From Dehalococcoidia bacterium (GTDB lineage Bacteria > Chloroflexota > Dehalococcoidia > Bin125): DNA of 64,000 nt. The notes beneath the pieces were generated by a model that searched no databases, was not told the DNA's origin, and saw only the letters and a list, made by a program, of their open reading frames with translations. Shown in pieces: positions 1 to 44,369 of this stretch. The first letter of the stretch is position 1. Each line of letters begins with the position of its first letter. The translations under genes were made by a program, and so were the position numbers. The stretch is taken from positions 224,001 through 288,000 of the forward strand of contig CAXXNO010000006.1 of NCBI GenBank assembly GCA_963663235.2, in the 5' to 3' direction.

Positions 1-3
1 TCG

Positions 4-1254
4 GTGAGCGAGGATCTGGCCGACCTCGCGCTGGACGAGATCGAAGGGCCCCAAGGCCGCCCGCGGACTACGGACGTCTTTGAACGGCTGCGCGACTTCC
101 GCCTGCCGGACCAAGCCCGCGCGGTGGGGCTGTACCCGTTCTTCATCCCCATCGACGTGAACGAGGGCACGGAGGCCGTCATCGATGGGAAGCGCGTGCT
201 CATGCTGGGCTCGAACAACTACCTGGGGCTCACGCGGCATCCGAAAGTGCTGGAGGCCGCCAAAGCGGCGCTGGAGAAGTACGGCCCGTCGATGACGGGG
301 TCGCGCCTATTGAACGGCACGAGCGTGATCCACGAGCAACTCGAGGAGCGCATCGCGAGCTTCCTGGGCCACGAAGCAGCGTTGATCTTCACGACCGGCT
401 ACCAGGCCAACCTCTGCGTCATCTCGGCGCTGATCGAGCGCGGGGGCAGCGTGGTCATCGACAAGATGGATCACGCGAGCATCTACGACGCGGCGGCGAT
501 GTCGCAGGGGCAATCCGTGCGCTTCCGGCACAACGACCCCGCGCACCTGGAGGAAGTCTTGAGCGGCCTCCCGAAGGACGCGGGCCGACTGGTGGTGGTG
601 GACGGCGTCTACTCGATGGGCGGTGACATTGCGCCGTTACCGGAGATCGTCGACGTGTGCCGCCGTCAGCAGACCCGACTGGTGGTGGACGATGCCCATG
701 CGATCGGCACGATGGGGGAGCGGGGCACGGGCACGCCCAGCCACTTCAACATCCAGGAGGGTGTGGACCTGGTGGTCGGCACGTTCAGCAAGTCGCTGGC
801 GTCGGTGGGGGGATTCTGCACCGGGCCGGGGTACGTGCTGGAACACATCAAGCACTTCGCCCGGCCGATGATTTTCACGGCCTCGCCGCCGCCGGCGTCC
901 GTCGCGGCGGCGATGGCGGCGATCGAGTGCATGGAGGAGGAGCCCTGGCGGGTGGAGCGGGTCAAAGAGATCGGCGGGCGGGTGCGGGCGGCCCTGCGGG
1001 AGATGCAGTTCAACATCGGCACGACGGAGACACCCATCATCCCGATCGTCGTCGGCAGCGAGCTGAAGACCGGGATGTTCTGGCGCGACCTGATGGACCA
1101 CGGCATCTACACCAACGCGGTGATCGTGCCGGCCGTGCCGCGGGGCCAGTCCTCCCTGCGGACCTCATACATGGCAACGCACAGCGACGAACAGATCGAC
1201 CGGGCGTTGGATCTGTTCGGTGAGCTGGGGCGAAAACACGGCATCATCCCCTAA
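4..1254 (+). CDS. PLP-dependent alpha-oxoamine synthase, most likely serine palmitoyltransferase (alternatives BioF/KBL)
   Basis: GSNNYLGL, TGSRLLNGT, DHASI, DDAH, GTFSKSLASVGGF (PLP Lys), PAVP and LRTSYMATH motifs. The GTG start overlaps a TGA (5-7), so the operon probably continues to the left. Confidence 0.8.
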   Translation: MSEDLADLALDEIEGPQGRPRTTDVFERLRDFRLPDQARAVGLYPFFIPIDVNEGTEAVIDGKRVLMLGSNNYLGLTRHPKVLEAAKAALEKYGPSMTGSRLLNGTSVIHEQLEERIASFLGHEAALIFTTGYQANLCVISALIERGGSVVIDKMDHASIYDAAAMSQGQSVRFRHNDPAHLEEVLSGLPKDAGRLVVVDGVYSMGGDIAPLPEIVDVCRRQQTRLVVDDAHAIGTMGERGTGTPSHFNIQEGVDLVVGTFSKSLASVGGFCTGPGYVLEHIKHFARPMIFTASPPPASVAAAMAAIECMEEEPWRVERVKEIGGRVRAALREMQFNIGTTETPIIPIVVGSELKTGMFWRDLMDHGIYTNAVIVPAVPRGQSSLRTSYMATHSDEQIDRALDLFGELGRKHGIIP

Positions 1255-1260
1255 ACCTGC

Positions 1261-2235
1261 ATGCGAGTCCTGCTGACGGGCGCCAGCGGCTTTATCGGCG
1301 GACACACAGCGCGCGCGCTGGTGGCCGCGGAGCACGACGTGCGAGCGCTGGTGCGCCCTACGAGCGACCGCGCGGGGCTGGTCGATCTCCCGATTGAGCG
1401 GGCGGTGGGCGATCTCAGCGGCGCCGGCCTCGCGGCCGCGTGCAGGGACCGCGAGGCGGTGATCCACGTCGCCGGTCTGACCAAGGCGCGTGACGAAGCC
1501 GAGTACCAGCGGATCAATTGCGAGGGCACCGCGCAACTGGCGAGCGCCGCCGCCAGTGCGGGCGTGCGGCGCTTCCTGTACGTCTCCTCGCTGGCGGCGC
1601 ACGGACCCGTCTCGACGGAGCAGTATCGCGATCCGGGCGAGCCGTGCCGTCCCGTCTCCCCGTACGGCCGCTCCAAAGCCGCCGGCGAAGCGGCCGCGCT
1701 GGCGCTGCGTGATCAGATGGCGGTGCAGGTGCTGCGTCCCAGCGTGGTCTACGGACCAGGGGACCGCGGCCTATTGCCATTCTTCCGGATGGCCCGTCTC
1801 CGCCTGATCCCGGTGATCGGGCGCGGGGAGAACCGGATTTCCTTCATCTACGCCACCGACCTGGTGGAGGGGATCACGGCCCTGCTGGCGCACGAGCCGG
1901 ACGGATCGCCGTATTTCCACATCGCGGACGCGGAAGGGCCGTACACGTGGCGGCAGTTGGTGGGGGCGCTCTCCGTAGCGGTAGGACGGTCGGTAGCAGT
2001 CGTGCCGGCGCCGGCGCTGGGCTTCAGCGCCGCGGCGGTGCTGATGGAGGGAGTGGCCAAAGTGGTGCGCCGACCGGCGCTCCTCGATCGGGGCAAAGTA
2101 GCGGAGATGAAGCAGCGCGCGTGGGCCTGCGACAGCGCCGCGCTGACGGCCACGACCGGCTGGACGCCGCGGACGCCGCTGGCAGCCGGCTTGCGCGACA
2201 CGGTGGAGTGGTATCGCCAGCACGGCTGGCTGTAG
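1261..2235 (+). CDS. NAD-dependent epimerase/dehydratase (extended SDR)
   Basis: TGASGFIG Rossmann motif, YVSS, YGRSK catalytic motif, RPSVVYGPGD. Confidence 0.9.
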   Translation: MRVLLTGASGFIGGHTARALVAAEHDVRALVRPTSDRAGLVDLPIERAVGDLSGAGLAAACRDREAVIHVAGLTKARDEAEYQRINCEGTAQLASAAASAGVRRFLYVSSLAAHGPVSTEQYRDPGEPCRPVSPYGRSKAAGEAAALALRDQMAVQVLRPSVVYGPGDRGLLPFFRMARLRLIPVIGRGENRISFIYATDLVEGITALLAHEPDGSPYFHIADAEGPYTWRQLVGALSVAVGRSVAVVPAPALGFSAAAVLMEGVAKVVRRPALLDRGKVAEMKQRAWACDSAALTATTGWTPRTPLAAGLRDTVEWYRQHGWL

Positions 2236-2237
2236 CG

Positions 2238-2837
2238 ATGAGCGCCCGCGATGCCGGCGCATCGGGGGACCGCCCGCTGCTCTCGTTCGACCTGGACGGC
2301 GTCCTGGCTGCACCGCCGTTGGGACGCAACCTCACCATGAATCGCCGGCTCGACATGTCGCCGCCGGAGCGTGAGATCGCGCAGCGGCGGCTCTCCGCGT
2401 GGGACCGCGTGCTCATGGCGACGTACTACCGCGTGCGCTACAGCGGGCGCGGGCCGATGCCGGGCGCGCTGGACGCCGTCGCCACGGCAGCCGAGCGTCA
2501 TCGCGTCATTCTGATCAGCGGCCGTGACCGGCGCGGGCGGCTCGCCACCGAGGCGTGGCTCGATCGACACGGCTTCCTCTCGCTGTTCGAGGACGTGCTG
2601 TTGAACGACAGCGGGCTGCCGCCCGCGGACTTCAAGTATTTGACGGCGCGCCGCTTGGGCGTGCGTCGCCATGTGGAAGACGATGCGGGAACCGCCGCGC
2701 TGCTCGCGCGCGCCGGCATCGCCGTGGACTTGATCGATTGGCCGCGGAATCGCGGGCTGACGCTGCCGCCGGGAGTGACGCGTCGGGCGGATCTGGCGGC
2801 GCTGCAACAGGCGATCGCGGCAAAGGCGGAGGCGTAA
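2238..2837 (+). CDS. HAD-superfamily phosphatase (5'(3')-nucleotidase-like)
   Basis: FDLDGV motif I, ISGR motif II, conserved K, VEDD motif IV; ATG 2 nt after the previous stop. Confidence 0.75.
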   Translation: MSARDAGASGDRPLLSFDLDGVLAAPPLGRNLTMNRRLDMSPPEREIAQRRLSAWDRVLMATYYRVRYSGRGPMPGALDAVATAAERHRVILISGRDRRGRLATEAWLDRHGFLSLFEDVLLNDSGLPPADFKYLTARRLGVRRHVEDDAGTAALLARAGIAVDLIDWPRNRGLTLPPGVTRRADLAALQQAIAAKAEA

Positions 2838-2860
2838 GCGCTGCGTGTTACGCTCGGCGC

Positions 2861-3223
2861 ATGGCCAAGAAAGAGCGCGCATTCGCCATCCACGCACCCC
2901 CCGCGGTGATCTGGAAGACGCTGATGGGCGAGGTGGAGGAGGGCGTGCGCAGCGGTCGCGCGGTGATCGTGCATCAAGAGGCGCCCCGGCGTCTGGTGTT
3001 GGAGATCCGCCTGGGCTGGGGGTTGGCGGCCCGCTACACCTATGAGCTCTCGCTGGCGGGCGCGCACACCGAGGTCGCAGGGAGAGTGGACGCGCACGGC
3101 GTGCGCAATCGCGTCGCCCGCGTGATCACGCTCGGCCGATCCTCGACGCCGTACATGCTGGCGCTGACCCAAGGCCTGGCCAACCTCAAAGCCGCCGCCG
3201 AGGAAACCGCGAGAGAAGCGTGA
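2861..3223 (+). CDS. SRPBCC/START-like small protein
   Basis: IHAPPAVIW N-terminus and C-terminal helix ending LANLKAAAE, typical of SRPBCC; TACGCT -10 element 6 nt upstream of the ATG. Confidence 0.6.
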   Translation: MAKKERAFAIHAPPAVIWKTLMGEVEEGVRSGRAVIVHQEAPRRLVLEIRLGWGLAARYTYELSLAGAHTEVAGRVDAHGVRNRVARVITLGRSSTPYMLALTQGLANLKAAAEETAREA

Positions 3224-3313
3224 CCGGCGCGCGGCCTGTGTAGCGTTTGACTCGCCGCCGGCGTGAAGCGAACAATGGAAGCCGGAGGGGCGGGGCCGGG
3301 ACGAGGGGCGACC

Positions 3314-4703: not shown

Positions 4704-5780
4704 GTGACCACGACCAGCGAACAAACCGAGCGAGAATCGCCGGCGGACGTGCTGGACCGTCTCACCGTGCCCGGCGAGCTGGTCGAAACCCTGCCGGCGG
4801 GGCGGGTGCGCTGCGTGGCGTGCGGACATCGCTGCCTGATCCCGCCGGGCGCGCGCGGCGTCTGTCGCGTGCGCTTCAACCGCGAGGGCGAGTTGCGCGT
4901 GCCCTCCGGCTACGTGGGGGCGCTGCAAGTGGACCCGGTGGAGAAGAAGCCATTCTTCCACTTTCTGCCCGGCTCCACAGCGCTGTCGTTCGGGATGCTG
5001 GGCTGCGACTTCCACTGCGGCTACTGCCAGAACTGGGTCACGTCGCAAGCGCTGCGCGACCCCGCGGCGGAGGGCGGCGCCCAGCCGGTGGAGCCGGCGG
5101 AGCTCGTGCGGACGGCGCTGGAGCGGGGCAGCCGCCTAGTCGTGAGCACCTACAACGAGCCGCTGATCACGTCGGAGTGGGCGGTCGCGGTGTTCAAGGA
5201 GGCGCGGCGGGCAGGGCTGCGCACGGCCTACGTGTCCAACGGCAACGCGACGGCGGAAGCGCTGGACTATATCGAGCCGTACGTCGATGCGTACAAAGTC
5301 GATCTCAAGTCGATGCAGGATCGGAACTACCGGCGGCTGGGCGGCGTGCTGGAGCACGTGCTGTGGACGATCCGTGCGGTCCACGAACGAGCGATGTGGC
5401 TGGAAGTGGTCACGCTGCTGGTGCCCGGCTTCAACGACAGCGACGACGAATTGCGCGAGGCGGCCGCGTTCCTGGCCGGAGTGTCGCGCGATATTCCCTG
5501 GCACGTCACCGCCTTTCACCCGGACTACAAGATGGTGGACCCCGAGCGCACGCCGACGCGGACGCTGCTCCGCGCCACGGAGATCGGACGGGCGGCAGGG
5601 CTGCGCTACGTCTACGCGGGCAACCACCCGGGGATGGTGGGCGAGTGGGAGAACACCCGCTGCCCGGGCTGCGACGCGACGCTGGTGCGCCGGTCCGGGT
5701 TCAACGTGCAGGAGCAGCGGCTGGACAGCGGCGGGGTCTGCCCCGACTGCGGCAGCCCGGTCGCCGGCGTCTGGGCCTAG
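4704..5780 (+). CDS. amrS: AmmeMemoRadiSam system radical SAM enzyme
   Basis: N-terminal CxxC...C...C, DPVEKKPFFHF, CDFHCGYCQNW radical SAM motif, TYNEP, PWHVTAFHPDYKM, C-terminal CPxC pairs. Confidence 0.92.
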   Translation: MTTTSEQTERESPADVLDRLTVPGELVETLPAGRVRCVACGHRCLIPPGARGVCRVRFNREGELRVPSGYVGALQVDPVEKKPFFHFLPGSTALSFGMLGCDFHCGYCQNWVTSQALRDPAAEGGAQPVEPAELVRTALERGSRLVVSTYNEPLITSEWAVAVFKEARRAGLRTAYVSNGNATAEALDYIEPYVDAYKVDLKSMQDRNYRRLGGVLEHVLWTIRAVHERAMWLEVVTLLVPGFNDSDDELREAAAFLAGVSRDIPWHVTAFHPDYKMVDPERTPTRTLLRATEIGRAAGLRYVYAGNHPGMVGEWENTRCPGCDATLVRRSGFNVQEQRLDSGGVCPDCGSPVAGVWA

Positions 5781-6554: not shown

Positions 6555-7244
6555 CTAGCACGGGTCCTGCGCGTCCCCGGAGGTTGCGAGGCGTTCGATG
6601 GTGTAGAGGACGGGGATGAGCACGAGCGCAGCCCATACCCAGCCGCCCAGAACGTCCGAGGGCCAGTGCACGCCGAGCGAGACCGCGGCCCAGGGCTGTA
6701 AGAAGACGGCGCCGAGGCCCCAGGTAGCGATGGGCAGGCGCAGCCAGAGCGGGCCAGGGATGCGCCAGCAGAGGTATAGCAGCAGCACCCCGGCGAGCGT
6801 GCCGCTCATCACGTGTCCGCTGGGAAAGCTAGACGAGGTGACGGATGCGTGCCGATCTAGCAAGTCCAGCGAGGGGCGGGGGCGGTCGACGGCGAGCTTG
6901 AGCAGCGCCTGCAAGGCGAAGGCCGGCAGGATCGCGGCGGAGAGCAGCGCCGCTCGGGGCCGACGGAGCGCGAGCAGCGCCACGACAACGAGGGCCACTA
7001 TCGCGAGGGAAGCCGGCGTGGAGCCAACATCGCGGAGGAAGCGGCCGAGGTCGCGGCCGGGCACGTCGTTCGCCTGCACCCAGCGGCCCACCGCGACATC
7101 GGCAGGGAAATGATCGGCCTGCGCCGCCCAGGCGGACATGGCGATCGCGCCGACGAGGAGGGCGATCCAGACGGCAAGCAGCAGCGTGCCGCTGGCGGGC
7201 CGGGGCGGGATCGAGGCCCAGGTTGCGTCAATCGTGGTGCGCAG
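6555..7244 (-). CDS. PAP2-family membrane phosphatase
   Basis: KxxxxxxRP (LKLAVDRPRP), FPSGH, GVHWPSDV motifs; probable CTG start 7 nt after GGAG. Confidence 0.85.
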   Translation of the reverse strand: MRTTIDATWASIPPRPASGTLLLAVWIALLVGAIAMSAWAAQADHFPADVAVGRWVQANDVPGRDLGRFLRDVGSTPASLAIVALVVVALLALRRPRAALLSAAILPAFALQALLKLAVDRPRPSLDLLDRHASVTSSSFPSGHVMSGTLAGVLLLYLCWRIPGPLWLRLPIATWGLGAVFLQPWAAVSLGVHWPSDVLGGWVWAALVLIPVLYTIERLATSGDAQDPC

Positions 7245-7267
7245 GGGGCGGCTCCGCTCGGCCGCAT

Positions 7268-7305
7268 CGTAACTTGGTGCGTAACTTGGTGCGTACCTTG
7301 GTGCG
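7268..7305. repeat. 12-bp tandem repeat x3 (CGTAACTTGGTG)
   Basis: Copies at 7268, 7280 and 7292 (one mismatch), between divergent genes. Confidence 0.9.
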
Positions 7306-7377
7306 GGGGGAAGAGCAGGCGCCCGCCCGTGGGGAGCGGACGCATCCGGAGTTCGCGGTACACTGAAAGCGGTCGGA

Positions 7378-9195
7378 ATGGCGCACCTAGCATCCCAACA
7401 TCTTGGGTTTCGGGATCGACTTTCGCGGCGCGCTCTGCTGCGCGCGGCGGCGCGCGCGGGGGTCGGGGCGACCGCGCTCGCGGTCGCCGGATGCGGGGAG
7501 GAAGCGGAACCGCCGGAACTCAGTGAGCCGCCGGACCTGGAGACGCTCCTCCGGGAGGTGCAAGAGCCGATCAGGGCACAGCGGCCGCCGCTGCCGTCGG
7601 AGGGGGTCCCGGAGCGGGGGGGGACGTTACGGCTGCACACCGATCTCGACCTGCTGGACTTCTTCGACATCCATCGCTCGCGGTTCCCCACCACCCAGGC
7701 ATTCTCCGCCCTGCAGCAGAACCGGCTGATCCGCTACGCGGACATCAACGCCGGAATCATGGAGAGCGACCTGGCCGCGCTGCCGGAGATCCCGGAGGCC
7801 GATACGTACGTCTTTGAGCTCAAAGAGGGAATCCACTGGTGGGACCGGAACCCCACGAACGGCCGCCCGTTCACCACCGCGGACGTGCGCGCGAACTTCG
7901 AACGGCAGATCGCCGGCGTCGACGCAACGGGTGAGCCCGACCCGCTCTTCCAGCGGCAGGCCGCCTTCGCCGAGACCATGACGCTGGACGTGGTTGATGA
8001 GCGAACCCTGGTCCTGCAAACCGACGGGCCCAATGCGGCGTTTCTCGGCAGCGTCATCGCGGGGCCGTGGGCGTTCTTTCAAGCGCCGGAAGTGTGGGAG
8101 GGGAATGGAGACCGCCTGCGCGACGACCCGCTGCACGCGTCCTTCTACAGCGGCACCGGTCCATTCATCGTGGACCGATTCGTGGAAGGGAGCGCGATCA
8201 GCTTCCGGCGCAACGCCGCCTATTTCCGGGAGGAGTTGCCACGGCTGGACGCGATTTCGTACCAGAGTTTGACCGACCCAGCCCGGCAGGAGAGCGCCTA
8301 CCGCGAGGGGGAACTGGACCTCTGGAGCCCCGCCGACCCCCTGCTGCTGGAGCCGCTGGTGCGCGACCTGCCGGACCAGCGGCTCAGCGACCGCCCACTG
8401 CCGTTCGCCATCCAGGCGTCGTTTCTTTTCCGGAGTGGAGTGGGAGACAACCCCTACCGCGACCGCCGCCTGGCGCTGGCCGTGCACCTGGCGCTGAATC
8501 GATTCGCCATCGTCGCGGCCACCTACGGCGGATTCGCGCGGCTGAGCGGGCCGCAGCCGTGGTTCGCCGAGGGCTGGGCGATCCCAGAGGAGACCCTGCT
8601 GGAACTTCCCGGATACCGCCCGGACAAGAGCGAAGACATCGTGGAAGCGCGCCGCCTGGTGGACGCCGTGGGGCATCGGGAACCCCTGCCGCTGGTGGTG
8701 CCGGACGTCTTCGAGGCCACCTTCGCGGGCATCGGAGCGGTCATCCGCCAAAACCTGGAGGTGAACCTGGGGGTCCCGATAGAGATCCGGACAGCGAGCT
8801 ACGCCCAGATCATCACCGGGCTGCGTGAGGGGACGACGTTCGCCGCCCTGGGCTGGGGCGACGCCATCACGGACGCGGACCCCACGGCGGATCTCCTGCG
8901 GACCATGCACAGCGAGGGCGCGGACAACCTGGGAGGGTTTTCGGATCCGACGCTGGATGTGGCCATCGAGCGGATGCGGGCGACGCTCGACCGAGACGAG
9001 CGCCAGCAGATCTTTCGGGACGAGGTGCAGCCGCGCTTAAACCGGAGCCCCGCCTGGATCGTCAACGTGGCCAACGGGATCCAGCGCAGCATCAGCCGAG
9101 CCGCCATCCATCTCCCCGCCTCCGGCTTCGGCTGGGACCCACACCTGCTGGAGCAGGCGTGGGTGGAAGGCAGCGACCTGGACGAAGGCGCCTGA
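7378..9195 (+). CDS. ABC transporter substrate-binding protein, family 5, Tat lipoprotein
   Basis: LSRRALL twin-arginine motif, AGC lipobox, RGGTL, GRPFTTADV, GTGPF motifs. Confidence 0.9.
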   Translation: MAHLASQHLGFRDRLSRRALLRAAARAGVGATALAVAGCGEEAEPPELSEPPDLETLLREVQEPIRAQRPPLPSEGVPERGGTLRLHTDLDLLDFFDIHRSRFPTTQAFSALQQNRLIRYADINAGIMESDLAALPEIPEADTYVFELKEGIHWWDRNPTNGRPFTTADVRANFERQIAGVDATGEPDPLFQRQAAFAETMTLDVVDERTLVLQTDGPNAAFLGSVIAGPWAFFQAPEVWEGNGDRLRDDPLHASFYSGTGPFIVDRFVEGSAISFRRNAAYFREELPRLDAISYQSLTDPARQESAYREGELDLWSPADPLLLEPLVRDLPDQRLSDRPLPFAIQASFLFRSGVGDNPYRDRRLALAVHLALNRFAIVAATYGGFARLSGPQPWFAEGWAIPEETLLELPGYRPDKSEDIVEARRLVDAVGHREPLPLVVPDVFEATFAGIGAVIRQNLEVNLGVPIEIRTASYAQIITGLREGTTFAALGWGDAITDADPTADLLRTMHSEGADNLGGFSDPTLDVAIERMRATLDRDERQQIFRDEVQPRLNRSPAWIVNVANGIQRSISRAAIHLPASGFGWDPHLLEQAWVEGSDLDEGA

Positions 9196-35791: not shown

Positions 35792-37582
35792 TCAGCGGCG
35801 CAGGAAACGGCGGGCCAGGTCCTGGTTGGAGAGGCGCAAGAGGGTGGGGCGGCCGTGGGGGCAGGTGTGGGGGTTGAGGCAGCGTTCGAGGTCGCGCAGC
35901 AGGGCGCGCAGCTCCAGGGGCTCCAGGCGCTGGCCGGCGCGCACGGCGGCGTGGCAGGCGGCGGAGGCGGCCACGGGGTCGTGCCGCTCGGGGACGCGGT
36001 CGGGTCCGGCGAGGTCATCGAGGAGGGCCAGCAGCGCCGACCGGGCGTCGCCCGGAGCCCAGCAGGCGGGCAGGGCGCGCAGCCGCAGGGTGCGCTCGCC
36101 GAACGGCTCCAGCTCGAAGCCCAGGGCCGTCAGCGCCGCTTCGTGCCCGGCCAAGGCGGCGGCCTGCTCGGCCGAGAGCTCCAGCAAGGGCGGGTCGAGC
36201 AGCGGCTGGCGCGCCTCCGGGCCCGCCGGCGCGGCGAGCAGCCGCTCGTAGAGCACGCGCTCGTGCGCGCCGTGCTGGTCGATCAGGTAGAGCGCGTCGG
36301 GCCCCTCGGCCACCAAGAAAGTCGCGCCCACCTGGCCCAGCGCCCTCAGCGGGGGGATCGCAGGAGGCGCGGGCGTCGGGGGCGGGGAGGGGCTCGGGGC
36401 GAGGGCCGTCGCGGCGCCGGCGCCGGCGCCGGCGACGGGGGTGGCGGCGGTGGTGGCACGGCGCAGCGCCGCGGCCTCCGGTCCGGGGGGATCGGAAGGC
36501 GCGGGGAGGGGGAAGGCCGCCGCCGCGGGCGCGGCGGCGGCAGTGAACGGGGACGGATCCAGGGGGCGGGGACCGGCGGCTTGCAGCAGCGCCGCCCGCA
36601 GGGTGCGCTGGATGAGCGAGAAGGCCGCATCCTCATCGGCCAGCTTCACCTGGGCCTTGGTGGGGTGCACGTTGACGTCGACCCGGCCCGGCTCGGCCTC
36701 CAGGAAGCAGACGGCCAGCGGGTGGCGGCCGGCGGGGAGCAGCTCGCGGTAGGCCTCCTCCACGGCGTAGTTGAGCCGTCGCGAGGTCACGGGGCGCGCG
36801 TTGACGAAGAGGCGCAGCGCGTCGCGGCGGCCGCGGTGATGCTGGGGCGGGGCCGCCAGTCCCGTGAGGCGCAGGCCGGCCTCGGGCCGGGCGCCGCTGA
36901 AAGACAGCGCCGTCTCGGCCGGCTCGAGCCCCCAGAGAGCGCGCAGCACCGCGCGGCGCTCCCCTTCGCCGCCCGTGCTGAGGACCGCGCGTCCCTCGGC
37001 GCGCAGGTGAAGGGCCACGTCCGGCCGGGCCAGCGCCGCCTCGGCGCAGACCCGCGCGATGGCCGCCCGCTCGCCACGGGCCCCGGCCAGGAACTTGCGT
37101 CGCGCCGGCTGGCGGGCGAAGAGGTCGCGCGCCTCGACGGTGGTGCCCAGCGGCGCCCCCGCCGGCTCCAGCGGCGCGGGGCGGCCGTGCTGGATGCGCA
37201 GCCGCGCGCCCAGCGCTCGCTCAGGTGTGCGGCTGAGGCAGTCGATCTCGGCTACGGCGGCCACGCTGGGCAGCGCCTCGCCGCGGAAGCCGTAGCTACG
37301 GACGCCCGGCAGCTCCCGGGCCGCGCGCAGCTTGGAGGTGGCGTGGCGCTCGAAGGCGAGGGGCAGTTGCTGGGGCGGGATGCCGTGGCCGTCGTCGACC
37401 ACGCGGATCAGGTCGATGCCGGCGCCGGCCACGGTCACCTCGATCCGGGTCGCGCCGGCGTCGAGGGCGTTCTCCAGCAGCTCCTTGACCACGGAGGCTG
37501 GGCGCTCGATCACCTCGCCGGCGGCGATCTGGGCGGCGGCCTCGGGGGGCAGGCGGAGGATGGCGGGGCGGTCGTCGCTCAG
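35792..37582 (-). CDS. mutL: DNA mismatch repair endonuclease MutL
   Basis: IAAGEVIERPASVVKELLENALDAGA, HATSK, GFRGEAL, DVNVHPTK, DQHGAHER, CPHGRP; probable CTG start overlapping the mutS TGA. Confidence 0.96.
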   Translation of the reverse strand: MSDDRPAILRLPPEAAAQIAAGEVIERPASVVKELLENALDAGATRIEVTVAGAGIDLIRVVDDGHGIPPQQLPLAFERHATSKLRAARELPGVRSYGFRGEALPSVAAVAEIDCLSRTPERALGARLRIQHGRPAPLEPAGAPLGTTVEARDLFARQPARRKFLAGARGERAAIARVCAEAALARPDVALHLRAEGRAVLSTGGEGERRAVLRALWGLEPAETALSFSGARPEAGLRLTGLAAPPQHHRGRRDALRLFVNARPVTSRRLNYAVEEAYRELLPAGRHPLAVCFLEAEPGRVDVNVHPTKAQVKLADEDAAFSLIQRTLRAALLQAAGPRPLDPSPFTAAAAPAAAAFPLPAPSDPPGPEAAALRRATTAATPVAGAGAGAATALAPSPSPPPTPAPPAIPPLRALGQVGATFLVAEGPDALYLIDQHGAHERVLYERLLAAPAGPEARQPLLDPPLLELSAEQAAALAGHEAALTALGFELEPFGERTLRLRALPACWAPGDARSALLALLDDLAGPDRVPERHDPVAASAACHAAVRAGQRLEPLELRALLRDLERCLNPHTCPHGRPTLLRLSNQDLARRFLRR

Positions 37583-40494
37583 GAGGGCACCGCCCTCTCC
37601 GCGGGCCTCTCCAGCGCCAGGTCCGCGGGGCCGTCCCAGCCCTGGCACTCCTCTTGGGCGCGCCGGCGCAGGGCGTAGAGCGCGCTGATCGCCTCCAAGG
37701 GCGTGAGCGCGTCCACATCCAGGGCGGCCAGCTCAAGGGCCAGGGCGGACGGGTCCGGGGGAACGGCGGGCGCGTCCACAGCGTCCGGGTTTGACCCATC
37801 GGGGCGTGCAGCGTCAGGACGTCCTGCGTCGGGGCGCCCCTCCAAGCGCTCCAGGATGCGCGCCGCGCGGGCCAGGAGCGGGGCAGGGAGGCCGGCCATC
37901 CGCGCCACCTCCAGCCCGTAGGAGCGGTCGGCGCCGCCGGGCACGATGCGGTAAAGGAAGCGCAGCGCCGCCTTGCCGCCTCCGGGGCCTTCGAGGCTTT
38001 GGGGGGCCGCGCGCACCGCCACGCTGGCGTTGTGGACCCGGCCGTGCTCTTCGGCCAAGGCCGTGAGCTCGTGGAAGTGGGTGGCGAAGAGCGTACGCGG
38101 CCCGCGCTCGGGCGCCGCCGCCAGGTGCTCGAGCAGGGCGCGGGCGATGGCGAGGCCGTCGTAGGTGCTGGTGCCACGCCCGATCTCGTCCAGCACCAGC
38201 AGCGAGCGCTCCGTGGCCGTGGCCAGGATGGCGCTGGTCTCCAGCATCTCCACCAAGAACGTGCTGCGTCCCGCGGCCAGGTGGTCCTGGGCGCCCACGC
38301 GGGCGAAGATGCGGTCCACCAGCCCGATGCGCGCCTCCGCCGCGGGCACGAAGCCGCCGCACTGGGCCATGAGCACGATCAGCGCCGCCTGGCGCAGGTA
38401 GGTGCTCTTGCCCGCCATGTTGGGCCCGGTCAACACCAGCACCTGGGCGCCGTCCGCGCTCAGGTCCAAGTCGTTGGGCACGAAGCGGCCGGCCCCGCCC
38501 CCCGCAGCGCCCTCCGCGCCGGCCGCCTCCAGCGCCGCCTCCACCAAGGGGTGACGGCCCTCGCGGATCAGCAGCCGCGGCGAGCGGTCCAAGCGGGGGC
38601 GGACGTAGCCGCGCGCCAGCGCCACCTCGGCCAGGGCGCAGGCCACGTCCAGGCGGGCCACGCCCCGGGCCAGGGCGCGCACCGCGGCGGCCTCCCGCCC
38701 CAGCCCGCGGCAGAGATCCTGGAACAGCGCGCGCTCGCGCAGGGTCAAGGCCTCGCGGGCCTGGAGCACCTGCGCCTCCAGCGTCCGCAGCTCCGGCGTG
38801 ACGAAGCGCTCGCCGCCGGCCAGCGTCTGGCGGCGCTCGTAGTTTGGGGGCACCCGGCCCAGGCCGCTCTTGCTGACCTCCAGGTAGTAGCCGAACGTGC
38901 GGTGATAGCCCACCCGCAGGTTGGCGATGCCGCTGCGCCCGCGCTCGCGCGTCTCCAGCGCCGCGATGGCCGCGCGTCCGCGGTGCAGGCAGGCGCGCTG
39001 ACGGTCGGCCTCGGCGTCGGCGCCGGCGCGGACGACGCCGCCGTCCTCGAAGGCGGCGGCGGGCTCGGGCTCCAGGAGCGCCGCGATCGCCTCTTGGGCG
39101 GCGGCGCAGGGGCGCAGCTCCGCCGCCACGCGGGCCAGCAAGAGGGGGCGCTCTTGGGCCGCGGCCTCCCCGTCCCCGGAAGCGGCCTCTGCGCCGGTGG
39201 GGGGATCTCGCTCCGCGCCGGCCCGCTCTAGGATCGGGACCAGCGCCGCCGCCGCCGCCAGCCCCCGGCCCAGCGCCGCCACCTCGGGCGGGGCGGCGAG
39301 GCCCGCGACGGCCCGGCTCAGGAGCCGCTCCAGGTCCGGCAGCGGGGCCAGGGCCCGGCCCAAGCCCTCACGCAGCAGCGGCACCTCCACCAGCAGGGCC
39401 ACCCGCGCCAGCCGCTCCTCGATCCGTTCCAGATCCAGTAAGGGTCGCGTCAGCCGGCGCCGCAGCAGCCGCCGCCCCGGGGCCGTGCGCGTGCGGTCCA
39501 GGAGCTCCAGCAGCGAGGGCCGCGCGCCCGCGTCCTCTTCCGCGCGGCCGCGGGGGAAGAGGTCCAGGGCACGCACGGTGGCCGGGTCCAGGCGCATGGT
39601 TGCGCCGGGCTCGTAGAGCCGCGGCCGCTCCAGGTGCGCCAGGGGTCCGGCGCCGCCGGAGCCGTCGGGGCCGTCGGGGCCGGACTGGGTCTCGCGCAGG
39701 TAGCGCAGCAGCGCCCCGGCGGCGGCGACCGCCGCCGCTCTGCCGGCCAATCCCAGCCCCTCCACGTCCGCCACGGCGTAGTGACGGCAGAGCTCCTCCG
39801 CCCCGGCCCGGGGCCGGAACTGCTCCGCGGGCCGCAGAGCGCGAGCGCAGCGCTCGCCCGGCAGCGCCTCCGCCAGCGCGGCCTCGAGGGGATCGGGGTC
39901 CGGGGAGGCCGGCGCCGGAGGCGCCGCCAGCAGCAGCTCGGCGGGGCCCAGGCGGGCCAGTTCAGCCGCCGCCTCGCGGGCGGGCTCCGGCCCGGCCAGC
40001 TCGCAGACGCGGAACTCGCCCGTGCTGAGATCGATGGCGGCCAGGCCGACCACCCCTCCCTCCGCCGACGGGGCGTCGCCGCCCCACTCCGCCCCTGGGA
40101 GGAGCGGGGAGAGGGCCGCGCAATAGTTGTTGAGCCCGCCCTCGAGCAGGGCGGGCTCCAGCGCCGTGCCCGGCGACATCACCCGCACCACCCCCCGGGC
40201 GACCAGCCCCTTGGTCGCGCGGGGGTCCTCCAGCTGCTCGCAGATGGCCACGCGATGGCCGGCGCGGATCAGCCGCGCCAGGTGGCCCTCGGCCGCCGCC
40301 ACGGGCACGCCGGCCAAAGGCACGCGCAGGCCCGGGCCCAGCGGCTTGCTGGTGAGGACGATGCCGAGAACGCGGCTCACCAACTCCGCGTCGGCGTCGA
40401 AGGTTTCGTAGAAATCACCCAAGCGGAAGAAAAGGATCGCGTCCGGATGGCGCGCCTTGATCTCCAGGTACTGCCGGCGGACGGGCGTGGACAG
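37579..40494 (-). CDS. mutS: DNA mismatch repair protein MutS
   Basis: TPVRRQY, GDFYE, TGPNMAGKST, STF, DEIGRGT, ATH, SYG; own RBS and CTG start; in frame with the upstream nuoF-like ORF. Confidence 0.96.
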   Translation of the reverse strand: MSTPVRRQYLEIKARHPDAILFFRLGDFYETFDADAELVSRVLGIVLTSKPLGPGLRVPLAGVPVAAAEGHLARLIRAGHRVAICEQLEDPRATKGLVARGVVRVMSPGTALEPALLEGGLNNYCAALSPLLPGAEWGGDAPSAEGGVVGLAAIDLSTGEFRVCELAGPEPAREAAAELARLGPAELLLAAPPAPASPDPDPLEAALAEALPGERCARALRPAEQFRPRAGAEELCRHYAVADVEGLGLAGRAAAVAAAGALLRYLRETQSGPDGPDGSGGAGPLAHLERPRLYEPGATMRLDPATVRALDLFPRGRAEEDAGARPSLLELLDRTRTAPGRRLLRRRLTRPLLDLERIEERLARVALLVEVPLLREGLGRALAPLPDLERLLSRAVAGLAAPPEVAALGRGLAAAAALVPILERAGAERDPPTGAEAASGDGEAAAQERPLLLARVAAELRPCAAAQEAIAALLEPEPAAAFEDGGVVRAGADAEADRQRACLHRGRAAIAALETRERGRSGIANLRVGYHRTFGYYLEVSKSGLGRVPPNYERRQTLAGGERFVTPELRTLEAQVLQAREALTLRERALFQDLCRGLGREAAAVRALARGVARLDVACALAEVALARGYVRPRLDRSPRLLIREGRHPLVEAALEAAGAEGAAGGGAGRFVPNDLDLSADGAQVLVLTGPNMAGKSTYLRQAALIVLMAQCGGFVPAAEARIGLVDRIFARVGAQDHLAAGRSTFLVEMLETSAILATATERSLLVLDEIGRGTSTYDGLAIARALLEHLAAAPERGPRTLFATHFHELTALAEEHGRVHNASVAVRAAPQSLEGPGGGKAALRFLYRIVPGGADRSYGLEVARMAGLPAPLLARAARILERLEGRPDAGRPDAARPDGSNPDAVDAPAVPPDPSALALELAALDVDALTPLEAISALYALRRRAQEECQGWDGPADLALERPAERAVPS

Positions 40495-40516
40495 AACGGC
40501 CCCCTCCCCGGAGCAC

Positions 40517-40537
40517 AGCATACACGGAACCGTGTAT
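40517..40537 (-). promoter_or_regulatory. mutS -10 element (TATGCT) overlapped by a perfect palindrome ATACACGG-AA-CCGTGTAT
   Basis: Palindrome at 40520-40537; -10 at 40522-40517; [12 protein letters not shown] at 40509-40501. Confidence 0.6.
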
Positions 40538-40657
40538 ACAGCACGCCGGGACGCCGACCGACAGGCTGACTCCAGAGCGCAGCCTAGCAGTTTGGCGGCG
40601 CATGTAGAACATCCGTGCACATAAGGGCCGGAGGGCGAGAACTGGGGCTCGCCGGCC

Positions 40658-40790
40658 GGGGCTAGCCGGAGGCGGCGACGGGCTGGGGCGAGGCGGGGTG
40701 GGGCTAGCCGGAGGCGGCGACGGGCTGGGGCGAGGCGGGGTGGGGCGGGGCGGCGACGGGCTGGGGCAGGCGGGGTGGGGCGGGGGGGAG
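40658..40790. repeat. 42-bp G-rich tandem repeat (two perfect copies plus a degenerate third) ending in a G7 run
   Basis: Copies at 40658-40699 and 40700-40741; G7 at 40782-40788. Confidence 0.9.
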
Positions 40791-42681
40791 CGCGGTCCTC
40801 CAGGACCACCGCCGCCGGCGCCAGCTCGCGGCAGAGGCCGCACTGAATGCAGCGGTCGTCGTCGATGCGCAGCCCCTCGGGGGCCTCCACGAAAGCGGCG
40901 GTGGGGCAGAGCGCGGCCGCCTCGCCCAGGGCGGGATCGGCCGGCGCGCTCACGCGGTGGCGGATCAGCGCCCGGCAAACCTTGGCGGGGCAGCGCCGCT
41001 CCACGATGTGGGCCTCGATCTCGTCGCCGAAGAAGCGCAGCACGCTGCGGATGGCGTAGGGCGTGAACTGGCCGTGCAGGCAGTTGGAGTTCTGCAGGGT
41101 GCGGTCCAGGGCGGCGATGCGCTCCAGGTCGTCGTGCCGCCCGAGGCCGGCGGCGATGCGGGCCAAGATCTCCACCAGCCGCTGGCCGCCACCGAAGCAG
41201 GTGGTGCAGCGGCCGCAGGACTCGTCCTCGCAGAACTCGCTGAAGTAGCGGGCCAGGTCCAGGACGCAGCTGCGCTCATCGAAGAGGATCAGGCCGCCCG
41301 AGCCCAGCAGGAGCGAGCGCTCGGTGAAAGGCGCCCGCTCCAGGGGCAGGTCGAGGTCGGCCGCGGCCAGCACGCCGCCCAGGGGGCCGCCGGGCTGCAG
41401 GCCCTTGGCCGTGTGGCCCGGCGGGGGACCGCCCGCGGCCTCCAGCATCAGCGTGGAGAGGGGGAGGCCGAAGGGCACTTCCAGCACGCCCGGCCGGCGC
41501 AGGTGGCCGCTGAGGCTGAAGATCTTGGTGCCGGCGTCGGCCTCCACGCCCTCGCCGCGGTACCAGTCGGCGCCGTGGCGCAGCACCAGGGGGGCGTTTG
41601 CGTAAGTCTCCACGTTGTTGACGTTGCTGGGGCGGGCGAAGACGCCGCGCTCGGCGGGGAAGGGCGGGCGGATCTTGGGCATGCCCCGCAGCCCCTCGAC
41701 CGAGGCGATGAGGCCGGTCTCCTCGCCGCAGAGGTACGAGCCGGCGCCGCGCACCACCTCCAGGTCGAAGGCCGTGCCCGAGCCCAGCACGTCGGGCCCC
41801 AGCAGGCCGCGGTCGCGCGCCTGCGCCAGGGCGCGCTCAACGCGGGCGATGCTTAAGGGGTATTCGTCGCGGATGTAGATGAAGCCGTGGCCAGCGCCCG
41901 TGGCGCGGCCGGCGATGATCATCCCCTCGATCATGGCGTGGGGGTCGGACTCCATCTGCACGCGGTTGACGAAGGCGCCGGGGTCGCCCTCGTCGGCGTT
42001 GCAGACGAGGTACTTGAGCGGCCCCGGGGCGCCGAGCAGGAACTTCCACTTGCGGCCGGCGGGGAAGCCGCCGCCGCCGCGACCGCCCAAGCCAGACTGC
42101 TCCACCAAGTCGCAGATGGCCATGGGCTCCAGCGCCAGGGCACGGGCCAGCCCCGCGTAGGCGTCCACGGCGAGGGCGTCGTCGATCGATTCGGGGTCGA
42201 TCACCCCCATCCACTGCATCAGCCGCCGCACCTGAGGGAGCCAGAACGGGTGTTGGGCCAGCGGCGGGATGCCGTCCTGGGCCTGGGGCCCGCGCACGCC
42301 CAGGGCCCAGTCCGGGCGGGGGTCGCCGTCCTGCAGCACCGCGGCGACAAACTCGGGCAGCGAGGCCGGGGACACGGGGCCGTAGAGCACCGGGGCCTTG
42401 CCGGGCGCCTGCACATCGATAGTGGGCAGGGCGAAGGAGGCGCCGAAGGCGCCGGTGGTGATCAGCTCGGCGTCCAAGGCGCGGGCCTCGATCGCGAGGC
42501 GCAGGGCGGCCAGCAGATCGTCGGCGCCGGCCGCCACGGAGGAGGTGGTGAGGTCCAGGCGCAGCAGGGTGCGACCGGCCCCCTCCCGCCGCTCCCAGCG
42601 GACGCGGGCGGCGTCGCGCAGGGCCTGCCAGCGCGCTTCCGCGTTGGTCAACGTCGGCTGGGTTAATGTCGGCTGGGTCAT
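40704..42681 (-). CDS. nuoF: NuoF/HoxF/HydB-like NADH-binding flavin Fe-S subunit (natural stop apparently out of frame by one base)
   Basis: GRGGGGFP, NADEGDPG, YIRDEY, GAGSYLCGEET, NNVET, ESCGRCTTC...C, C-terminal CIQCGLC. Confidence 0.88.
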
Positions 42682-42682
42682 C

Positions 42683-43222
42683 TCAGGGCTGCGCCTCCGG
42701 CCCGGGCTCATCGCGGCGCCGGACGGCCGGCGCCGTCTCCAGCGCGCCCGCCGGCGGCGGGGGCGGCGCCTGGCCCTCGCGGACGCGAAGGGCCAGGCGG
42801 ACGGCCTCGGTCAAGCTCAGCGGGCCGACCACGCGGCCGTCGAGCCAAACTTGAGGAGCGCGCTCGCAGGTGCCGTTGCACTGTCCCAGCCAGAGGCCGT
42901 AGCGGTCGTCGGGCCCGTTCTGGCCCAGGCGGCACCCGAGCACGGCCTCCAGCGCCTCCTTGATCCGCTCGCCGCCCACGATGCGGCAGCTGGGGCCGCT
43001 GCACCAGGTGATGAGCGTGCGCGGGGGCGGGGTCAAGCGGAACTCCGTGTAGAAGGTGGCAGGGCCGTAGACCTGGGCCTCGGTCAGGCGCAGATGCGCG
43101 GCGACCAGGCGCATGGCCGGGCGGGGGATCCAGCCCAACTCCTCCTGCACCAGATGCAGAGCGGGCAGCAGCTGCGCCCGCTCCCGCGGCAACTGGGCCA
43201 GCCGGCCCGCCACACGCTCCAT
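42683..43222 (-). CDS. nuoE: NuoE-like [2Fe-2S] subunit
   Basis: LLPALHLVQEELGWI, ATFY, CSGPSC...CNGTC..AP; GGAGG RBS. Confidence 0.9.
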   Translation of the reverse strand: MERVAGRLAQLPRERAQLLPALHLVQEELGWIPRPAMRLVAAHLRLTEAQVYGPATFYTEFRLTPPPRTLITWCSGPSCRIVGGERIKEALEAVLGCRLGQNGPDDRYGLWLGQCNGTCERAPQVWLDGRVVGPLSLTEAVRLALRVREGQAPPPPPAGALETAPAVRRRDEPGPEAQP

Positions 43223-43320
43223 GCGCCCCGCCTCCGGGCGGCGGCCTGGAGCCCGCCGCGGATCGCGTTGATTGTCGCGCAGGCCCATCCTAGCGAGGGG
43301 GCGTGGCGAGGAACAGGCGG

Positions 43321-44334
43321 CTAGCCGTTGCCCTCCAGCAGGAGCGCGTCGACGAAGGCCTTGGGGTCGAAGGGGGCCAGGTCGGCGGGCCTCTCGCCCG
43401 TGCCCACGAAGCGCACGGGGATGCCCAGCTCGGCGGCGATGGCGAAGACCACGCCGCCCTTGCTGGTGCCATCCAGCTTGGCCAAGCAGATGGCGGTGAC
43501 GTCCGCCGCCTCGGCGAAGAGCCGCGCCTGGCTGAGGCCGTTGCGGCCGGTGCCGGCGTCCATGACCAGCAGCACCTCATGCGGCGCCCCCTCCACGCGC
43601 CCGGCCAGCACCCGGCGGATCTTGGACAGTTCCGCCATGAGGTTCTTCTTTGTCTGCAAGCGGCCGGCGGTGTCGACGATCACCAGGTCGGCGCCGCGGG
43701 CGCGGGCGGCCTCCAGCGCGTCGTAGGCCACCGCGCCGGGATCGGCCCCGGGCTGGTGGGCGATCACCGGCGCTCCCACGCTCTCACCCCAGTGTTGCAG
43801 CTGATCGATGGCCGCCGCGCGGAACGTATCGGCGGCCGCCAGGATCACGCTGCGCCCTTCCCGGCCGTAGGCGCGGGCGAGCTTGGCGATGGTGGTAGTC
43901 TTGCCCGACCCGTTGACCCCCACCACCAGCACCACCTGCGGGGGCGGGGGTTGCTCCGCGCCTCCGTTCCAGAGGCGCCCGCCGGCGGCGCGCTCCCCGG
44001 GGCCGCTGAGCAAAGCCAGCAATTCATCGCGCAGCAGCTCGCGGAGGGCGTCCGGGCGGGCGTCGCGTTTCTCCTCGGCGCGGCGGCGCACGCGCTCCAG
44101 CAGAGCCACGGCGGTGGTCGCGCCGACGTCGGCGGCGATCAGCCCCTCCTCCAAGTCCTCCCAGGCCTGCTCGGGGACGGCGTCGCCGCGGGCCAACAGG
44201 CCGCCCAGCCGGCCCAAGAGCGAGCGGCGGGTGGGGGCGGTGGCGTCCGCCATCACGGCGGCCAGTTCGGCCTCGGCGGCGGCGTGGGCGGTATCGACCG
44301 CGCCGCCGCGTTGGAATCGAAACAGCTTGACCAT
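43321..44334 (-). CDS. ftsY: SRP receptor FtsY
   Basis: GVNGSGKTTTIAKLA, DTFRAAA, DTAGR, KLDGTSKGG, GTGE. Confidence 0.96.
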   Translation of the reverse strand: MVKLFRFQRGGAVDTAHAAAEAELAAVMADATAPTRRSLLGRLGGLLARGDAVPEQAWEDLEEGLIAADVGATTAVALLERVRRRAEEKRDARPDALRELLRDELLALLSGPGERAAGGRLWNGGAEQPPPPQVVLVVGVNGSGKTTTIAKLARAYGREGRSVILAAADTFRAAAIDQLQHWGESVGAPVIAHQPGADPGAVAYDALEAARARGADLVIVDTAGRLQTKKNLMAELSKIRRVLAGRVEGAPHEVLLVMDAGTGRNGLSQARLFAEAADVTAICLAKLDGTSKGGVVFAIAAELGIPVRFVGTGERPADLAPFDPKAFVDALLLEGNG

Positions 44335-44369
44335 GGCGGGCGGCGCTCCGGTTGTTGGGTTCGAGGGGC

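Follow-up and report, generated by a model that had tools for sequence, protein, structure and literature searches.

A candidate ceramide-type sphingolipid operon with clade-specific partner genes in a Dehalococcoidia-type Chloroflexota genome

The window analysed here is a stretch of 64,000 nucleotides (nt) from a Dehalococcoidia-type genome (G000:C6:224001-288000, where G000 denotes the genome and C6 the contig), whose 2.75-Mb assembly consists of 14 contigs and is 91.9% complete; the DNA upstream of it was examined as C6:208001-227500 (L004). At the 5' end of the window lies a putative sphingolipid operon of four genes, which encode an alpha-oxoamine synthase (AOS) resembling bacterial serine palmitoyltransferase (Spt), an extended short-chain dehydrogenase/reductase (SDR), a HAD-fold phosphatase-like protein and a short protein of probable SRPBCC fold; a DUF4015 gene follows downstream (Table 1). 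The GC content is ~0.68-0.71 over this region, and the probable Chloroflexota origin named in a preliminary description of the DNA is borne out by near homologues that are labelled Chloroflexi or Dehalococcoidia. The gene order given there for window 1-3223 was confirmed, as were the spacings of 6 nt between the AOS stop and the SDR ATG and of 2 nt between the SDR stop and the HAD ATG; a gap of 23 nt separates the HAD gene from the start of the SRPBCC open reading frame. The same description had taken the first gene to begin with a GTG overlapping a TGA. Such an overlap is present (GTG at 4-6, TGA at 5-7), but the GTG is not the AOS start and the TGA ends no gene, because the AOS reading frame extends further 5', as far as an ATG, giving a protein of 426 residues, and many homologues align over 100% of this longer form.

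Table 1. Genes, sites and loci discussed in the text; positions without a prefix are those of the window
Feature	Position	Strand	Evidence or context
Spt-like alpha-oxoamine synthase (AOS), 426 aa	1..1254; ATG at G000:C6:223974 (L004 15974), 27 nt ahead of window	+	Pfam, NCBIfam, PDB, tree
CerR-like extended SDR, 324 aa	1261..2235	+	Pfam Epimerase, 3Beta_HSD, gene neighbourhood
HAD-fold phosphatase-like protein, 199 aa	2238..2837	+	Invariant motif residues, AlphaFold model, Foldseek
Small protein of probable SRPBCC fold, 120 aa	2861..3223	+	AlphaFold model, Foldseek
Promoter-like sigma-70 site	3247-3276		Promoter/terminator scan
DUF4015 putative glycosyl hydrolase, 464 aa	3263..4657	+	Pfam PF13200 1.2e-86; conserved downstream neighbour
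AmmeMemoRadiSam-system radical SAM gene and classical PAP2 phosphatase gene	4704-5780, 6555-7694	-	TIGR04337, 291 bits, above cut-off (radical SAM)
bCerS-like GNAT-like N-acyltransferase gene	G000:C2:28306-29490		Strong homologue of Nitrospirota cluster gene, 1.5e-69
Second PAP2_3 copy	G000:C4:334927-335736		PF14378 1.4e-42
Inositol-lipid locus	G000:C12:379545-385007 (L171 3045-8507)		
MGDG-synthase-like GT28 genes	L104 8034-9167, L114 5717-6922, L102 9356-10495, L107 5843-6976		Beside Spt-like gene

The AOS is a pyridoxal 5'-phosphate (PLP)-dependent enzyme of fold-type I (Pfam Aminotran_1_2, 1.2e-57). The three motifs that had been pointed out in it are all present in the translation of window 4-1254 (GSRLLNGT, GTFSKSLASVGGF and RTSYMATH), and each aligns with its counterpart in the solved serine palmitoyltransferase (SPT) of Sphingobacterium multivorum (GSRFLNGT, GTFSKSLASLGGF and RFSLMATH; PDB 8guh/3a2b), as does the Schiff-base lysine motif, which reads GTFSKS both in the AOS and in 8guh. 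The S. multivorum SPT is the best solved relative, with 368.6 bits over AOS residues 36-414, although it comes from another phylum. Below it among solved structures stand further SPT matches (304 and 284 bits), Thermus BioF/KBL (273), KBL (247), a cysteate acyltransferase (228), E. coli BioF (220), ALAS (204) and CqsA (126). NCBIfam ranks Spt models first, second and fifth for this protein, at 458 (CFB), 414 (BetaP) and 337 bits (AlphaP), with bioF at 373 and KBL at 334, which also fall short of their own cut-offs. Each of these Spt scores lies under its cut-off (640, 500 and 670, respectively), and the equivalog models are built for three named groups; the AOS is therefore filed as Spt-like and not as an equivalog member.

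A housekeeping BioF or Kbl enzyme, acting in biotin synthesis or threonine breakdown beside unrelated neighbours, is one alternative to be weighed. It draws on the bioF score, on the label 8-amino-7-oxononanoate synthase given by JGI to near homologues, and on the AOS being the only one of its genome, in which tblastn found no second AOS gene. However, the bioF score is below the cut-off of that model (373 < 426). The earlier remark that no bio genes or threonine dehydrogenase gene are adjacent is true and extends to the whole 92%-complete genome, where bioB, bioD and tdh all lack a match over cut-off.

The AOS phylogeny bears on the same question. The input comprised the query, Chloroflexota orthologues, 20 Chloroflexota paralogues, relatives from Nitrospirota, Phycisphaerales and gammaproteobacterial metagenome-assembled genomes (MAGs), 14 Pseudomonadota Spt-type sequences, six of which are above the AlphaP Spt cut-off, and E. 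coli BioF and Kbl. The Spt labels are based on NCBIfam equivalog cut-offs and the BioF/Kbl labels on the named E. coli genes; the trees contain no ALAS, CqsA, cysteate-acyltransferase or characterised Bacteroidota Spt rows, and E. coli BioF forms a long branch. The Spt side had an SH-aLRT support of 96 in a quick tree of 81 rows, and in a careful maximum-likelihood tree of 61 rows, made after the removal of 20 near-duplicates, the separating branch was supported at 100/99. On the Spt side of the latter stand the query, 24 other Chloroflexota orthologues, the Nitrospirota, Phycisphaerales and gammaproteobacterial MAG relatives and 12 Pseudomonadota Spt sequences (four exceed the AlphaP cut-off, and both of the two others tested exceed the BetaP Spt cut-off). 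The opposite side holds BioF and Kbl of E. coli together with 16 paralogues from Chloroflexota. These come from both paralogue groups, one of which passes the KBL, BioF/Kbl and bioF cut-offs; the second passes none. The placement in a BioF/KBL clade that the preliminary description had allowed for thus did not occur. Strong AOS orthologues (at least 395 bits, 45-61% identity, with the next best match at most 326 bits) are found in 37 of 400 other Chloroflexota genomes, a count that, like those for the acyltransferase below, includes the unpublished genome G227. Since many of these 37 genomes hold two to four AOS matches, the Spt-like type coexists with BioF/KBL-type paralogues, which also argues against a housekeeping role. 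We rejected that role on the tree, on the model cut-offs and because bioB, bioD and tdh have no match over cut-off, and regard it as very improbable.

The second gene product had been described as an extended SDR, an identity that Pfam confirms (Epimerase 1.1e-35; 3Beta_HSD 1.3e-21); it carries the glycine motif GASGFIGG and a catalytic YGRSK (YxxxK). The protein is homologous to Spt-adjacent reductases of Nitrospirota, Phycisphaerales and Pseudomonadota. Its homologues adjoin the AOS gene at 28 of 32 loci outside Chloroflexota (full-length, 29-40% identity) and at 12 of 35 loci within that phylum; in Pseudomonadota, where flanks of 1.5 kb were considered, 7 of 14 loci have one next to Spt. 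Excerpts of two papers on the bacterial ceramide pathway set out its enzymes Spt, bCerS and CerR with a proposed order and describe CerR as an NDUFA9-like reductase whose gene lies in the sphingolipid region of Caulobacter (PMC11087976, PMC11324152); in the Caulobacter model, as given in the excerpts of the former, the reductase works after N-acylation (PMC11087976). The earlier proposal of a sphingolipid pathway that includes this SDR is consistent with the homology to Spt-adjacent reductases, but the 3-keto base that had been named as its substrate does not agree with the Caulobacter order. The SDR may reduce the 3-keto group either before or after acylation.

A second acyl chain would call for an N-acyltransferase. 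The upstream contig had been proposed as the place to look for genes for an acyl carrier protein (ACP), an acyl-CoA ligase and a bCerS-like ceramide synthase, and none of the three lies in the 6.5 kb 5' of the AOS gene; an acyl-ACP synthetase gene is likewise absent from that stretch, which holds genes for PAP2_3, GYD, LysM, enoyl-CoA hydratase, ThiS and DAHP synthase proteins. The bCerS-like gene of this genome is instead found on a different contig, C2. In Nitrospirota loci (L010), the gene directly 3' of the AOS encodes a protein of ~370 aa with a weak GNAT signal, and the C2 gene is the one strong homologue of this cluster gene in the genome; its bCerS-like label comes via the Nitrospirota gene and not from direct comparison with the characterised Caulobacter protein.

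A bCerS-like match is present in 36 of the 37 Chloroflexota genomes with a strong AOS orthologue, compared to 35 of the 363 others, and the sole strong-AOS genome without one is 82% complete. In 5 of 35 Chloroflexota loci this gene and the AOS gene are no more than ~1.4 kb apart; one of the five, in G292, a genome of the same class, has the gene order AOS, bCerS-like, SDR. Outside the family, the nearest relatives of the C2 protein are AOS/SDR-adjacent genes in G292, G338 and G007, at 40% identity each. All five chromosome-level Dehalococcoidia genomes that bear the operon have a bCerS-like gene, at a distance from the operon, and so do four of four genomes examined from other phyla. A PHP phosphoesterase gene beside the bCerS-like gene was considered as a pathway member and dropped, as none of 16 other bCerS-like loci has such a neighbour. 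As a separate observation, in three loci from Gammaproteobacteria or Competibacteraceae MAGs (L031, L034 and L037) an NTP_transferase gene comes after the Spt-like gene, which has no adjacent SDR gene, and a bCerS-like gene lies elsewhere. Two of these loci, L034 and L037, continue with a gene on the other strand for a large acyltransferase plus AMP-binding (Aas-like) protein, which in L034 is fused to an MFS domain.

The third and fourth genes were harder to assign. The HAD protein of the window has no Pfam or NCBIfam match at E ≤ 0.01 and the small protein has none in either collection; alignment profiles of the two families, searched against solved structures, returned nothing significant (best E 0.068 for HAD and 0.48 for SRPBCC). 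With these sequence-profile searches null, fold comparison was needed. The AlphaFold model of the HAD protein (pLDDT 91.1) has 202 Foldseek matches at E ≤ 0.001, the best at 5.6e-7, and among the matches listed there are HAD hydrolases only. The HAD-like family has 48 members in a large protein collection, and D18, D20, G21, K133, D148 and D149 are invariant over 44 of its sequences. Because the motif residues are invariant and the model matches HAD hydrolases, the earlier assignment as a HAD phosphatase stands despite the lack of a family-model match. The protein shares with lipin/LNS2-type and other HAD phosphatases a DxDGV nucleophile motif, a conserved K and DD, and the HAD Rossmannoid fold. 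Pfam matches of the 44 relatives fall to PF24694 LNS2_PITM1-3 (18), PF12710 HAD (13), Hydrolase (6), Hydrolase_6 (6) and NT5C (3); the LNS2 matches are weak even among the relatives (best 3.6e-6) and lacking in the window protein at the above threshold.

The small protein belongs to a family of 16 members, two of which match Pfam Polyketide_cyc2 at 0.031. Its AlphaFold model (pLDDT 85.3) matches SRPBCC/Bet v 1-type structures, including CalU16 (3.8e-5), TcmN ARO/CYC and CoxG, at E values of 3.8e-5 to 1e-3 and TM scores of 0.44-0.69 for a chain of only 120 residues; the Foldseek list also has non-SRPBCC folds, namely the BamC N-terminal domain and kinase domains. The SRPBCC-type fold that had been suggested for the fourth gene is compatible with the top matches. 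As these matches include CalU16 and polyketide aromatase/cyclases, and as CqsA belongs to the AOS family, one could imagine that the AOS-SDR pair yields a small metabolite for signalling or of secondary metabolism (for example, a CqsA-type alpha-hydroxyketone or polyketide-like amino ketone) and that the SRPBCC protein serves as cyclase or binder. However, CqsA scores 126 bits compared to 368.6 for SPT, the quorum-sensing synthase model gives 224 bits with a cut-off of 428, there are no polyketide synthase or nonribosomal peptide synthetase genes nearby, and the 120-residue protein is shorter than the cyclases it matches. We consider such a product highly unlikely.

For operon conservation, genome contigs were searched with the HAD alignment. 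The search gave 49 loci, all in MAGs labelled Dehalococcoidia, Chloroflexota or Chloroflexi. The AOS-SDR pair is directly upstream of the HAD gene in 47 of the 49, the small gene is downstream of it in 44, DUF4015 is downstream in 43 and a divergent LysM gene is upstream in 39. A PAP2_3 gene is upstream in three loci, besides the window's own, and these three carry the AOS closest to that of the window (63-81% identity), which makes AOS-SDR-HAD-SRPBCC the core module and PAP2_3 a recent addition in the sub-lineage of the window.

The PAP2_3 gene stops 108 nt before the AOS ATG and encodes a membrane protein of the Aur1/sphingomyelin-synthase type (PF14378, 6.7e-41, 140.6 bits with a gathering score of 27), containing the sequences PSMH and NHYFLD, which we take to resemble the catalytic motifs of the Aur1/PAP2_3 family. 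Its sole NCBIfam match is NF052609, phosphoinositol dihydroceramide synthase. The likeness to Aur1 inositol-phosphorylceramide synthase and the sphingomyelin synthases ends there: NF052609 reaches 30 bits where the cut-off is 480, adjacency to the AOS is rare, and a PAP2_3 match occurs in 41 other Chloroflexota genomes, just two of which have a strong AOS orthologue. PAP2_3 as a general Spt partner in Chloroflexota is unsupported by these counts, and since so few PAP2_3 genomes carry the Spt-like AOS, we put forward its link to ceramide as a hypothesis. The genome has a second PAP2_3 copy, on contig C4, with ~40% identity to the copy upstream of the AOS; by eye, it adjoins a leucyl-aminopeptidase-like gene and the rpsO/pnp region.

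A possible donor pathway for such an enzyme is encoded on contig C12, where an inositol-lipid locus contains genes for an inositol monophosphatase (minus strand), a myo-inositol-1-phosphate synthase, two Lip_A_acyltrans proteins, a PHP phosphoesterase and a CDP-alcohol phosphatidyltransferase. This suggests that the organism makes phosphatidylinositol-type lipids, and a phosphoinositol donor is therefore plausible. In other Chloroflexota lineages, a GT28 glycosyltransferase gene resembling monogalactosyldiacylglycerol (MGDG) synthase adjoins the AOS in all four loci tested; it is located between the AOS and SDR genes in two, between the bCerS-like and SDR genes in one, and by an SDR-less AOS in one. 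Its product is a candidate ceramide glycosyltransferase, and the comparison suggests that head-group genes vary between Chloroflexota lineages.

We consider it likely that these genes form the core of a ceramide-type bacterial sphingolipid pathway in this Dehalococcoidia-type Chloroflexota genome. Judged from sequence and predicted structure, the sphingolipid-type locus is real and of a known kind, but its operon make-up is clade-specific; we infer its enzymatic steps as follows. The PLP enzyme would join an amino acid, most likely L-serine, to a fatty acyl thioester, yielding a 3-keto long-chain base. The bCerS-like N-acyltransferase would then attach the second chain, and the co-transcribed extended SDR would reduce the 3-keto group, in either order. 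The probable task of the lipin/LNS2-like HAD phosphatase and the putative SRPBCC lipid-pocket protein is to deal with a lipid intermediate that is phosphorylated or hydrophobic, and in the sub-lineage of the window PAP2_3 may place a phospho-headgroup, possibly phosphoinositol, on the ceramide.

Several observations weigh against this pathway. The AOS scores below all Spt equivalog cut-offs; no NCBIfam model matches the bCerS-like protein, and its Pfam GNAT match is sub-threshold (7.3e-4); the bCerS-like family is not specific to Spt, as the 35 matching genomes that lack a strong AOS orthologue show; PAP2_3 is a rare neighbour and mostly occurs in Chloroflexota without the Spt-like AOS; and the LysM and DUF4015 neighbours are conserved as well, so that part of the synteny may reflect relatedness and not function. 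Six of the genomes without a strong orthologue belong to one genus (G048, G060, G099, G144, G189 and G223, ~6 Mb each) and have a bCerS-like match of ~1e-82 with an AOS match only at paralogue level (~1e-77). This genus may use a different long-chain-base synthase, or its acyltransferase may have another role.

Some of these points would fit an operon whose product is a long-chain amino alcohol or a different aminolipid and not a canonical ceramide, with the AOS using alanine, glycine, cysteate or phosphoserine, the HAD protein dephosphorylating the product, the SRPBCC protein carrying it, and the distant bCerS-like gene serving another purpose. The acyltransferase gene is absent from the operon in 47 of 47 AOS-bearing loci, the solved cysteate acyltransferase is a member of the AOS family too, and the HAD family has its best Pfam likeness in LNS2, a lipid-phosphatase domain that 18 of 44 relatives match; these add to the sub-cut-off AOS scores and the 35 genomes just mentioned. 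Nevertheless, SPTs outscore the cysteate enzyme by a wide margin (368.6 vs 228 bits), the bCerS-like gene co-occurs with the AOS in 36 of 37 genomes and in five of five operon-bearing chromosomes, and the nearest relatives of its product outside the family adjoin AOS and SDR genes. An aminolipid product therefore appears improbable to us, and the ceramide-type pathway is retained as the better account.

Within the ceramide-type reading, a more elaborate scheme can be drawn, which we offer tentatively and think is on balance doubtful. The Dehalococcoidia module (the Spt-like, CerR-like, lipin-like HAD and mini-SRPBCC proteins, perhaps with DUF4015) could represent a distinct sphingolipid branch in which a phosphorylated intermediate is made, dephosphorylated and handed on by the soluble lipid-pocket protein; in the sub-lineage with PAP2_3, the inositol-lipid locus of the genome might then lead to an inositol-phosphoceramide-type lipid. 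Candidate intermediates for such a branch would be a phosphoserine-derived long-chain base phosphate, ceramide-1-phosphate or a phosphoinositol-phosphate head group.

Bacterial sphingolipids have long been considered restricted to a few Gram-negative groups. Metagenomics now predicts them in dozens of phyla, and to our knowledge almost none of these predictions has been tested. The Spt/bCerS/CerR pathway of Caulobacter crescentus was reportedly described by Olea-Ozuna and colleagues in 2021 and Stankeviciute and colleagues in 2022. The genome studied here resembles it in having a Spt-clade AOS, an adjacent extended-SDR reductase and a GNAT-like N-acyltransferase, and homologues of its SDR and acyltransferase flank Spt genes in Pseudomonadota. 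In contrast to Caulobacter, the window locus lacks neighbouring genes for a dedicated ACP or an acyl-ACP synthetase, its acyltransferase gene is unlinked, and HAD and SRPBCC genes, and in the sub-lineage a PAP2_3 gene, lie in or beside the operon.

In Chloroflexota, the closest precedent is the work of Ding et al. (2024; ISME J, PMC11334938), excerpts of which count 218 Black Sea MAGs of Chloroflexota with Spt-like proteins and tie ceramides to the class Anaerolineae by abundance correlation. The preliminary description had spoken of a lineage in which such lipids are not well established, a statement that these 218 MAGs have overtaken (PMC11334938, as excerpted). Their 'Spt-like' clade B, which takes in these 218 MAGs, is, as the excerpts present it, similar to our case in that it contains Spt homologues outside the classical Spt clade, linked to bCerS and CerR by genomic proximity, and in that Chloroflexota are proposed as sphingolipid producers (PMC11334938); it differs in its link to Anaerolineae, whereas the window locus is of Dehalococcoidia type with a different operon make-up. 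Spt-like genes in Chloroflexota are thus already known from that source (PMC11334938), and the window operon has the HAD and SRPBCC genes in addition. These two partners point to steps beyond the Caulobacter model, for example lipid-phosphate handling or lipid carriage, and the compact, clade-conserved Dehalococcoidia gene set is suited to expression and assay. Should PAP2_3 prove to transfer head groups to ceramide, fungal Aur1 would have in it a counterpart from bacteria. Lipids of this kind could also act as biomarkers of this uncultured clade.

A promoter/terminator scan provided weak evidence for the ends of the operon, in that the sigma-70 site ahead of DUF4015 was the single promoter-like site of its kind and terminators were no commoner than in shuffled sequence. 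Inspection of the DUF4015 protein by eye shows a hydrophobic, signal-like stretch at its N-terminus. Beyond the DUF4015 gene lie the radical SAM gene and the classical PAP2 phosphatase gene listed in Table 1, the latter encoding a long Ser/Arg/Pro-rich N-terminal extension. Further along, at window ~36000-46000, the GC content rises up to 0.74-0.78, compared to ~0.68-0.71 in the rest of the window.

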